A DNA stretch of 51,139 nucleotides from a virus (Duplodnaviria > Heunggongvirae > Uroviricota > Caudoviricetes), in IMG/VR virus record IMGVR_UViG_2744054912_000002; one strand, 5' to 3'. Made by a program: the position numbers and the translations under genes. Positions 27,072 through 28,406 of the stretch are shown here, piece by piece; positions within the stretch are counted from its first letter, which is position 1; every line of letters starts with the position of its first letter. Under the pieces are notes generated by a model that saw only the letters and a list, made by a program, of their open reading frames with translations, was not told where the DNA came from and made no database searches.

Positions 27072-27278
27072 GTGCATATGTGTATCTTTGATACAGCGCA
27101 CATTAACATCGGGAGAATAATCGTGTCATCCAAGGCTAATTATGAATCGCTGGCATCGATCATGCCGCGTAATGAACAGGAAGCAGATGCTGTAGTGGAC
27201 CCGGTAATCGCTGAAATGAATGCTCGCCTGGAGGCTGAATTTGCAGCTGAGAATGAACATACCACCCAGGGCGACTAG
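27072..27278 (+). CDS. Small hypothetical protein (pmgN-like); start uncertain (GTG at about 27123 has a better RBS)
   Basis: 68-aa ORF; GGGAGAATAATC-GTG upstream of internal start. Confidence 0.35.
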   Translation: MHMCIFDTAHINIGRIIVSSKANYESLASIMPRNEQEADAVVDPVIAEMNARLEAEFAAENEHTTQGD

Positions 27279-27882
27279 GACTGTTTTTTGTGTCGGTAGC
27301 GGTCCGTCACTCACTCGTGAGGACTGTGCTGCTATAGAAAAAACTGGCTGTTCAATCATCGCGGTTAACAATTCCTGGCAGATGTTCGATGACATTTATG
27401 CCTTATACGCCGGTGATTTGTCATGGTGGAAGCAATACGGATCCACCATACCGGGAGGGAAATTCCGCAAAGTGACAGCCAACCTGGCGGCGGCGAAATC
27501 ATTTTCGTTGGAGTACAGGCGATATTGTGGACCGGCGGAAGGGGTAAATAGCGGCGCGCAGGCTATCAGTCTGGCTGCTGAATCAGGGGCTGAAGTAGTT
27601 GTATTAGTCGGCTATGACTGTTCTCTGCAAAACGGCCTTCATTGGCATGGCGCGCACCCTCAAGCCTTACGGAATCCAACGCAGGTGTCTATTTCAAAAT
27701 GGCAACAGCAGTTCCTGGATACCCGCAAAAAACACGCAGATTTACATATTTTGAATGCAAGTAGGAGCAGTGCAATTCAATGTTTCCCAAGAATAAATTT
27801 AGAGGCAGTGATCGCGTTATTATCGTCGGCAGTGGCCCAAGCGCCGCAAACTTTGTTGCGCCGCGCGGAGTGCCGATTATAG
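27253..27882 (+). CDS. Rossmann-like VGSGPS protein, paralog 1 (pmgO-like)
   Basis: TVFCVGSGPSLT...IIAVNNSWQMF...VVVLVGYDCS; start chosen at internal Met. Confidence 0.5.
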   Translation: MNIPPRATRTVFCVGSGPSLTREDCAAIEKTGCSIIAVNNSWQMFDDIYALYAGDLSWWKQYGSTIPGGKFRKVTANLAAAKSFSLEYRRYCGPAEGVNSGAQAISLAAESGAEVVVLVGYDCSLQNGLHWHGAHPQALRNPTQVSISKWQQQFLDTRKKHADLHILNASRSSAIQCFPRINLEAVIALLSSAVAQAPQTLLRRAECRL

Positions 27883-28406
27883 CGGTCAATGGGGCCATCG
27901 ACTGGCTGAACCGCGCTTCTTATTTTTTCACACTTGATCCATCGCCAGACAATATGCGGCGCGTTGGTCGTGGCCGCCGTCGCCGTGGTGTTTGTTATTG
28001 CATGGCACTACCCGATGTTAAAGAACGTGAAGTCAGAGACGGCGTTCTGTGCTTCCGTCGTGTGGCTGAACGTGGCATGGAGCCAAAAAATACGAATTCT
28101 CCCGAGTGGTGGGCGTGGCGCTGGTCCGCACATTTCGGACTTTGCGAAGATGAGAATGAAATTGCCAGCGGCAATAGTGCATATGGTGCTCTGAACCTGG
28201 CTTTCCATATCGGATTCAAACATGTCGCCCTGGTGGGCGTTGACGCTACACAAGAACCACGCGTTCACTCCGGCGGCACGCCAAAAAATCTAAGTCACCT
28301 GCCTTTGTTATTCCAGTCTGCGCGTGAACGGATTGACGTTGTTTCATGCGGGAAAATGGGAGGTATTCCGCAGATGACTCTTAAAGAATGGCTGAAGAAT
28401 ACATGA
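27780..28406 (+). CDS. Rossmann-like VGSGPS protein, paralog 2 (pmgP-like)
   Basis: [14 protein letters not shown]...[11 protein letters not shown]...[10 protein letters not shown], same motif order as paralog 1. Confidence 0.55.

Follow-up and report, generated by a model that had tools for sequence, protein, structure and literature searches.

We analysed a 51,139-nucleotide stretch of viral DNA (IMG/VR record IMGVR_UViG_2744054912_000002, Caudoviricetes; hereafter the window) that belongs to a P1-like phage-plasmid. Two overlapping plus-strand genes in it, pmgO (27220..27882, 220 residues) and pmgP (27780..28406, 208 residues), encode paralogous DUF115/Maf/Cst-like putative glycosyltransferases, each of a single domain. 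The pair is best described as minimal Maf/Cst-type glycosyltransferases which, with the GT8-like product of pmgQ (29077..29778, plus strand), belong to a widespread phage glycosylation module. On balance, conserved motifs and gene neighbourhoods favour the view that PmgO, PmgP and PmgQ form a soluble, cytoplasmic glycosylation module, composed of a DUF115/Maf/GT42 superfamily pair and a GT8-like enzyme. The 5.9 kb around these genes is 98-99% identical to P1, P7 and many P1-like phage-plasmids. The two proteins are PmgO and PmgP of P1 at 98-99% identity; in P7 they are HdmB and HdmC, whose name, 'head morphogenesis', has no experimental basis in the P7 record; pmgQ corresponds to P7 hdmD. The RefSeq and PHROG labels are automated ('alpha-2,3-sialyltransferase' for PmgO, 'glycosyltransferase' for PmgQ, and 'unknown' for PmgP in PHROGs), and a further database label, 'norphogenetic protein', is meaningless. 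The original prediction, made from the letters of the window, had described two adjacent open reading frames, neighboured by the phosphatase Ppp, a DxD-motif protein and the phosphatase Pap, and all of these were present. The start that it gave for the first gene, 27253, is an internal ATG (Met12); the start at 27220 agrees with a conserved 'ML..W' N-terminus among homologues. The start codon of pmgP has an AGGAG 12 nucleotides upstream.

Both proteins have the modified GT-A, sialyltransferase-like alpha/beta fold of the DUF115/Maf superfamily, which supports the Rossmann-like alpha/beta architecture originally proposed for them. In the fold comparison, which carries two unlabelled figures per row, the Maf flagellin glycosyltransferase 5mu5 gave 13.6 / 13.5, the archaeal MptE pyrophosphokinase 8sd5 gave 11.0 / 12.6, the Cst-I sialyltransferase 2p56 gave 10.2 / 10.8 and Mycobacterium tuberculosis SteA 9hmy gave 10.0 / 9.6, followed by thiamine pyrophosphokinases (7-10) and mammalian GT29 sialyltransferases (7-9). 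Since the matches are of these kinds, the fold alone permits two chemistries, namely glycosyl transfer from a cytidine monophosphate (CMP)-sugar or pyrophosphoryl transfer from ATP. A structure search of BFVD returned many small uncharacterised DUF115-like phage proteins. The Pfam family PF01973 (DUF115 / MptE-like / Maf_flag10) was matched at E <=1 by 26 of 27 members of the PmgO family (best 3e-8) and by all 28 of the PmgP family (best 9e-7), and the distant PmgP relative P0258 passed its gathering threshold of 34.6 bits with 44.1 bits. Judged by these scores, the two families belong with PF01973 at the level of the superfamily and not of the strict family. When a joint profile of both families was compared with the sequences of the PDB, the best match was Cst-II (E 0.012), at GxGPSL and S-G...G-x-D, and Maf followed at E 0.86; neither MptE nor a thiamine pyrophosphokinase was matched up to E 10.

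The residues conserved across both families recall those of Cst-II and Maf. In PmgP numbering, P20, N37, D53, S133 and G153-x-D155 are invariant in both, and S18, G19 and S21 are at least 90% conserved. The glycine-rich motifs, V25-G-S-G-P-S30 of PmgO (27292..27309, plus strand) and V16-G-S-G-P-S21 of PmgP (27825..27842, plus strand), are not dinucleotide-binding Rossmann loops; they are the loop, GxGPS(L), with which the sialyltransferase-like DUF115/GT42 superfamily binds its donor, the PmgO motif matching G-N-G-P-S-L of Cst-II in profile-to-PDB alignments. The alignments to Cst-II were in register with the GT42 CMP-binding motif at the GPSL loop and at SG...G-x-D, and the Asn at the end of strand 2 was also aligned in the PmgO profile alignment. 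The invariant positions correspond to the CMP-binding residues of Cst-II. The triplets D66, S111, D133 of PmgO and D53, S133, D155 of PmgP occur in the same order as D272, S334, D357 of Clostridium botulinum Maf (CbMaf) and E324, D415 of Magnetospirillum magneticum Maf, with a Ser-to-Asp spacing of 22 in PmgO, PmgP and Cst-II versus 23 in CbMaf. D272, S334 and D357 are needed for CbMaf activity (bioRxiv 10.1101/2020.06.03.131540), and E324 and D415 come from earlier work as cited in that preprint. The invariant residues thus appear to be counterparts of the Asp/Glu, Ser and Asp that Maf requires.

The resemblance to both model enzymes has bounds. Like Maf (5mu5), which O-glycosylates a cytoplasmic protein directly as a soluble enzyme, PmgO and PmgP have the modified GT-A core and the GxGPS loop, and they appear to have counterparts of the required residues. 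However, they consist of a 208-220-residue core only, compared with a 632-residue chain in 5mu5, and the large N- and C-terminal helical domains are missing; identity is 15-19%, below the Pfam threshold. Maf has its flagellar and nonulosonate setting, whereas here a paralogous pair and a GT8-like partner occur in phages, and no flagellin or nonulosonate-biosynthesis genes were seen in about 45 loci. The Cst-I/Cst-II enzymes (GT42), which the joint profile matches best among PDB sequences, align at GxGPSL, at the strand-2-end Asn, at S-G and at G-x-D 22 residues on, and they are the source of the 'alpha-2,3-sialyltransferase' label. Their acceptor is lipooligosaccharide. No His aligned with the catalytic lid-domain His188 of Cst-II was identified in the pair; candidates are H141, H143 and H146 of PmgO, in an HWHGxH motif after G-Y-D, and the invariant H173 of PmgP. 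Since E. coli K-12, to our knowledge, lacks CMP-N-acetylneuraminic acid (CMP-Neu5Ac), the label is unlikely to be literally right. The PmgO family, and not the PmgP family, has invariant C134, H141, H143 and H146 (window 27619-27657) and near-invariant C24 and C36; the cluster just after G-Y-D, in a part of lower model confidence, might coordinate a metal or be catalytic through its His residues.

The paralogy of the two proteins is real and ancient. They share the motifs VGSGPS, IIAVN, NSG/GNS and GYD/GVD in the same order, as had been noted before. Direct pairwise alignment gave only marginal similarity: BLASTP aligned just 36 N-terminal residues (E 0.004), identity is about 24%, and shuffle tests gave a z of about 4.5, with the observed score reached in 2 of 2000 Smith-Waterman and 0 of 2000 global shuffles. 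The families themselves align clearly, however, since hhalign of a 27-sequence PmgO alignment against a 28-sequence PmgP alignment covered 162 columns with a probability of 97.8% and E 7.7e-13, and the HMM (hidden Markov model) of each family matches the other family. We infer that the duplication is old because identity is low, comparison at the DNA level found no nucleotide repeat between pmgO and pmgP, and each family has been conserved in its own right in lineages that range from the Proteobacteria to the Bacteroidota and the Gemmatimonadota. Tandem duplication as originally suggested therefore stands as to common descent and falls as to recency, for which an in-register DNA repeat was sought and not found.

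The third protein, PmgQ, has the features of a GT-A enzyme of the GT8 kind. Its family has the invariant motifs D79-L-D81-T, G148-D-Q and H208-G-x-P-R-P, and in a comparison with the PDB the family profile matched the Skp1 alpha-galactosyltransferase 6mw5 (E 1.3e-6), glycogenin (4e-3) and Streptococcus pneumoniae GT8 5gvv (8e-3). The DxD, the G-D-Q and the C-terminal H-G-x-P-(R/K)-P, which resembles H-x-x-G-x-x-K-P-W, are shared with the GT8 enzymes (glycogenin, Skp1 GlyT, 5gvv and WaaO/J/R), from which PmgQ differs in its size of about 230 residues. P1 PmgQ itself has no Pfam GT8 match, and 5 of 24 relatives match with a best E of 0.033, short of the threshold. By its motifs and profile matches, then, PmgQ is a putative GT8-like glycosyltransferase.

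Linkage across genomes ties the three proteins together. Loci were taken from a scan of representative bacterial genomes, a metagenome scan and contig look-ups and were scored with HMMs of the three families; the counts refer to 25 distinct non-P1 loci that have 2.5 kb or more of flanking sequence on each side. A PmgQ homologue lay within 4.5 kb of PmgP in all 25, which makes the adjacent DxD protein of the original prediction a real, and for PmgP an obligate, partner. A PmgO homologue was near PmgP in 17 of the 25, and 11 contained a methyltransferase or an extra glycosyltransferase in the module. The PmgP family is large (546 clusters at E <=1e-3 in an exhaustive profile search); a scan of viral contigs yielded only P1-like copies. 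Fusion proteins join O to P (P0051, encoded at L003 10001-11131), P to Q (P0220, P0298), Q to P (P0307), Q to P and a methyltransferase (P0272), and a methyltransferase to P (P0312). Because fusions occur in both orders and the linkage is constant, O, P and Q act in one pathway. All accessory genes of the module are of glycan-synthesis type, with clear Pfam matches to Methyltransf_23 and FkbM methyltransferases and below-threshold matches of Nucleotid_trans-like, GT2-like, second GT8-like, DUF6716 and pyruvyl-transferase-like kinds. A fourth conserved component did not emerge: all-against-all clustering of neighbours gave only O/P and Q in most loci, with methyltransferases and the Nucleotid_trans-like glycosyltransferase as variable extras, and PmgN, PmgM, PmgL, Ppp and Pap were not conserved with the module. 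No pmgN counterpart was found beside the module outside P1-like elements. In a Hafnia alvei prophage (L004 10001-12007), a PmgO homologue without PmgP or PmgQ lies between holin and terminase genes and is followed by a 280-residue protein without a Pfam match and a Methyltransf_23 methyltransferase; since its usual partners are absent there, PmgO can evidently work in another partnership.

One of the two paralogues could be catalytically dead and serve as the scaffold or specificity subunit of an O-P heterodimer: the two usually occur in the same order and are fused in P0051, many modules run on P alone, and the Cys/His cluster peculiar to PmgO (C134, H141, H143, H146) could be structural. Since drift would be expected in a dead subunit, whereas both families keep the shared active-site positions (the P of GPS, N, D, S and G-x-D) invariant, we consider this improbable.

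Among the phosphatases, Ppp (28388..29080, plus strand) is a lambda NinI-type Ser/Thr metallophosphatase (Metallophos E 9e-16, PHROG 246 E 5e-113), and Pap (31415..31918) has a HAD_PNKP match (E 3e-11). Only P1-like elements, among them a Pantoea relative of 72% identity (L009), have Ppp between P and Q, and it was absent from all 42 distinct non-P1 loci examined. In the P1 relative D6, a ppp gene with 90% nucleotide identity to that of the window (L111 4947-5639) sits among unrelated nin-like small open reading frames; no PmgO, PmgP or PmgQ gene was found within 5 kb of it and D6 had no other nucleotide match to the 5.9-kb query. Ppp thus moves independently, since its neighbours differ there. 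Pap begins 3.0 kb past the end of PmgP, not 2.4 kb as first stated, and belongs to a different unit, on the far side of two C1 operators (29780-29796 and 29829-29845) and preceded by pmgR and pmgS. The co-location of the phosphatases, which had been taken as a functional cluster, is therefore lineage-specific and probably incidental, and ppp is probably a passenger outside the module.

This distribution also bears on the second chemistry permitted by the fold. PmgO and PmgP could be pyrophosphokinases of the MptE/thiamine-pyrophosphokinase type acting on a pterin, vitamin, nucleotide or sugar, with Ppp and Pap in the same pathway, an idea that takes up the nucleotide pathway of the original prediction and with which the fold is compatible. 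The Pfam family carries the MptE name, the invariant Asp could bind Mg-ATP, and in P1 a phosphatase gene stands between P and Q. However, the joint profile finds Cst-II and Maf, not MptE or thiamine pyrophosphokinases; the pair is not conserved together with Ppp or Pap; and the partners and fusions of the pair are glycosyltransferases and methyltransferases, with no pterin, thiamine or nucleotide genes save one locus with ribonucleotide reductase. Unlike MptE (8sd5) and the thiamine pyrophosphokinases, moreover, the pair occurs in bacteria and the phages of bacteria. We regard a pyrophosphokinase function as having a slim chance. Glycosyl transfer is favoured over pyrophosphoryl transfer because of the profile matches to Cst-II and Maf, the invariant residues and the glycan-synthesis partners. 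Of the nucleotide, nucleic-acid or protein modification pathway first suggested, the protein part is retained, as glycosylation, and nothing was found that points to nucleotides or nucleic acids.

The genomic positions of the module suggest an acceptor. HK97-type prophages arrange their genes as TerL-portal-protease-major capsid-(O)-P-(methyltransferase)-Q-head-tail connector, and the module follows the major capsid gene immediately on its 3' side in 12 loci (L017, L019, L106, L107, L112, L113, L115, L174, L178, L179, L181/182 and L189), a minimum count, since BLAST against six reference proteins was the sole means of identifying capsids. In lambdoid prophages, it lies in the late region, between antiterminator Q, lysis genes and terminase. 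Five Pseudescherichia-type chromosomes have the O, P and Q genes dispersed between Big_1 adhesin genes of the intimin/invasin type, and no phage genes lie near; in L105 1-20600, and likewise in L011-L015, they are interleaved with a 1166-residue intimin/invasin-type inverse autotransporter and other Big_1 proteins. This arrangement recalls adhesin-glycosyltransferase pairs such as Aah with AIDA-I. In some HK97-type prophages, a small open reading frame stands between the capsid gene and the PmgO homologue (L017 7280-7564, L112 5061-5357, L113 893-1171, L174 421-705 and L179 5677-6057). Its product has a conserved N-terminal domain of about 45 residues and a linker rich in Ser, Pro, Thr and Ala, has no Pfam match, and in three of the five (L113, L174 and L179) ends in a basic RGRP/RGRK tail that is AT-hook-like. 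Its composition would suit an acceptor of O-glycosylation; as a universal acceptor it was rejected, because only one lineage has it and the window lacks it.

From the homology, fold, conserved residues, linkage and fusions we infer a glycosyltransferase activity, with donor and acceptor as follows. The GxGPS loop, the strand-2-end Asn and the (N)S-G helix cap would hold a nucleotide-activated sugar, and chemistry would be carried out by the invariant Asp after strand 3 (PmgO D66, PmgP D53) and the G-x-D Asp (D133, D155), as by their counterparts in Maf. By analogy with Maf, Cst-II and WaaZ, the donor would be a CMP-activated ulosonic acid. PmgQ would add a hexose from a uridine diphosphate (UDP)-sugar, and in other phages further glycosyltransferases and S-adenosylmethionine-dependent methyltransferases would extend or decorate the glycan. 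No gene for a lipid carrier, a flippase or an oligosaccharyltransferase was recognised in any module, and the glycan would therefore be assembled straight onto an acceptor in the cytoplasm. The acceptor is most likely a protein: in phages, a structural protein of the virion, for instance the capsid, and in the Pseudescherichia island the Big_1 adhesins. The position after the capsid gene in the 12 loci is supporting evidence that the module probably acts on virion proteins.

Host CMP-Kdo (Kdo being 3-deoxy-D-manno-octulosonate) is possibly the donor in P1, a guess by analogy. Maf, Cst and WaaZ use CMP-activated ulosonic acids, and E. coli K-12, as far as we know, makes only CMP-Kdo of this class. 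The P1 unit has no sugar-nucleotide synthesis gene. Two Maf enzymes, from C. botulinum and Geobacillus kaustophilus, use CMP-Kdo when placed in E. coli and form Ser/Thr-O-Kdo on flagellin (bioRxiv 10.1101/2020.06.03.131540). Taken together, these points make Kdo a reasonable guess for PmgO and PmgP in P1. A bolder picture, which we offer tentatively and judge unlikely, is that P1, together with a broad range of phages that infect Gram-negative bacteria, coats virions with a short glycan on the capsid or another structural protein, made in the cytoplasm by a minimal Maf-like pair and a GT8 enzyme and started from CMP-Kdo as Ser/Thr-O-Kdo, and that bacteria have borrowed the module for intimin/invasin-type adhesins. 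A precedent for coated virions, proven by experiment, exists in mycobacteriophages: in the account of Freeman et al. 2023 given in PMC11256854, phage glycosyltransferases of Che8, Rita and others put glycans on major capsid proteins. As described in that account, those systems resemble the module in using soluble glycosyltransferases, sometimes with methyltransferases, that are dispensable and lie near structural genes; here, by contrast, the enzymes are a DUF115 pair and a GT8-like protein in phages of Gram-negative hosts.

Several observations weigh against a glycosylation module acting on virion proteins. P1 PmgO (23.6 bits) and PmgP (21 bits) fall below the PF01973 gathering threshold, and the correspondence of their invariant residues to those of Maf was drawn from motifs and spacing. 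The likeness to WaaZ is faint: the WaaZ_KDO_III model TIGR04437 was matched at E <=1 by 6 of 40 members, the best being the fusion P0051 with 20.3 bits (E 3e-4) against a cut-off of 200 bits, P1 PmgP reached 11.9 bits, and the match to PF27901 was faint. The capsid-adjacent loci may stem from few insertions or from one ancestral insertion and so are not independent counts, capsid families vary among module-bearing phages, and the sites between antiterminator Q, lysis genes and terminase are also classic moron sites. The P1 unit is not beside capsid gene 23, its mapped promoters are C1-controlled early promoters, and late expression is only deduced. In-frame deletions of pmgN, pmgO, pmgP and pmgQ left plaques normal and antirestriction unchanged (PMC9024508), so for the pair, on whose knockout phenotype the original prediction had looked for an answer, no plaque or antirestriction defect is on record. 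The P1 virion proteome paper makes no mention of glycosylation, and the searched literature contained no biochemical or mass-spectrometric report of a glycan on P1 and no functional study of pmgO, pmgP, pmgQ or DUF115 in a phage.

The hosts and the WaaZ matches raise the alternative that the same enzymes remodel the host envelope. The identified hosts of the module are all diderm and come from Alpha-, Beta- and Gammaproteobacteria, Bacteroidota and Gemmatimonadota; those named are Enterobacteriaceae, Pseudomonas, Zhongshania, Ochrobactrum, Brevundimonas, Commensalibacter, Methylophilaceae, Sinomicrobium (Bacteroidota) and Longimicrobiales (Gemmatimonadota). PmgO and PmgP could place Kdo on the inner core of lipopolysaccharide (LPS) as WaaZ does, and PmgQ could act like WaaO, WaaJ or WaaR, so that the receptor is masked; P1 adsorbs to core glucose, and a masked receptor would reduce superinfection or mean that fewer progeny are lost on cell debris. 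This would agree with the faint WaaZ match of the PmgP domain, with the soluble nature of all the enzymes, as in core assembly, with the moron-like sites beside lysis genes, and with the GT8-like character of PmgQ, a family that includes the LPS outer-core glucosyl- and galactosyltransferases. Overexpression of WaaZ reportedly truncates the outer core of E. coli. However, the likeness to WaaZ is marginal and does not extend beyond the N-terminal GPS region; core remodelling does not usually involve accessories such as methyltransferases or pyruvyl-transferase-like proteins; and a module in late or structural operons is expected to be silent in lysogens, while late expression would alter only new LPS shortly before lysis. 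Nor would core remodelling explain the capsid-connector placement or the chromosomal association with adhesins. We therefore judge it unlikely, and if true it would be a new receptor-masking strategy.

In P1, pmgO and pmgP belong to a unit, pmgN-pmgO-pmgP-ppp-pmgQ, that is bounded by the C1 repressor operators Oppp (former Op83; 27062..27078, minus strand, one mismatch to the annotated P1 operator), which heads it, and OpmgRa (29780..29796, plus strand, the same as the annotated P1 operator), where it ends and the pmgR/pmgS unit starts; the further C1 operator at 29829..29845 precedes pap. The unit is C1-controlled, and plaques form under laboratory conditions without it being required. CRISPR interference (CRISPRi) knockdown agrees with the deletions for pmgO, pmgP, ppp and pmgQ (PMC10695390), and transcripts are detected during infection. 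The first gene, pmgN (27123..27278, plus strand), has a GTG start preceded by GGGAGA, encodes a 51-residue acidic protein (PHROG 2350) and overlaps pmgO by 59 nucleotides. It is essential by CRISPRi (PMC10695390), yet its in-frame deletion is viable (PMC9024508); polarity does not explain the discrepancy, since the downstream genes are nonessential. Upstream of pmgL and pmgM lies the late promoter LPpmgL (26122..26140, plus strand; it departs from the P1 annotation at two positions, of which one falls in the -10 hexamer), from which late read-through could enter the pmgN-pmgQ unit.

The early-type promoters recall another alternative, that the module glycosylates phage DNA and produces a hypermodified base that withstands restriction, like the T-even glucosyltransferases. 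Soluble phage glycosyltransferases with methyltransferases do occur in DNA hypermodification clusters; the P1 annotation gives the unit C1-controlled early-type promoters, and one locus adjoins ribonucleotide reductase genes. We find it highly improbable: no hydroxymethylase, deoxynucleoside monophosphate kinase, DpdA or other base-modification gene was present in any locus examined, deletion of pmgO, pmgP or pmgQ leaves antirestriction unchanged, and the capsid and adhesin contexts point to proteins. P1 DNA, moreover, is ordinary Dam-methylated DNA, and the phage packages host DNA in transduction.

Successive genes of the unit overlap by 59, 103, 19 and 4 nucleotides, which suggests translational coupling. 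In the 103-nucleotide overlap of pmgO and pmgP (27780-27882), pmgP is in the -1 frame, and the stretch codes both for the conserved C-terminal helix of PmgO and for the beginning of PmgP; in relatives from outside the enterobacterial group, the overlap is no more than 4-16 nucleotides. A programmed -1 frameshift joining PmgO to PmgP was considered and rejected: the conserved C-terminus of PmgO (to about 27838) overlaps the conserved start of PmgP (from about 27813), so no shift site could retain both domains. It is also disfavoured by the AGGAG and ATG that pmgP has of its own and by the short overlaps in other lineages.

The genes before and after the unit were also inspected. In the pmgL/pmgM region (26229-27055), PmgL is DksA-like, with a zinc finger (PHROG 54 E 1.6e-12), and PmgM is VRR-NUC-type nuclease-like (Pfam VRR_NUC E 3e-4; PHROG Holliday-junction resolvase E 6e-27); the annotation of both is limited to 'putative morphogenetic'. 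Directly after pap, the window carries a complete type IC (EcoR124-like) restriction-modification locus on the minus strand (32188-38211), made up of hsdR (32188-35304), hsdS (35426-36652) and hsdM (36649-38211), where P1 has pmgT/U/V and downstream genes; GC content falls to 0.40-0.44 across this region.

P1 is a heavily used genetics phage, and its pmg genes have lain for decades in a block without assigned function. The module supplies a concrete hypothesis that is cheap to test, as the deletion mutants already exist. If the hypothesis is true, virion glycosylation, which in the searched literature has been shown only in mycobacteriophages, would extend to phages of Gram-negative bacteria, and with a coat on P1 virions coliphages would have their first described system of virion glycosylation. 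It would also offer a compact family (about 200 residues) of protein-glycosylating enzymes for glyco-engineering in E. coli, and would matter for how the immune system recognises therapeutic phages and P1-based delivery vehicles and for the pharmacokinetics of both.

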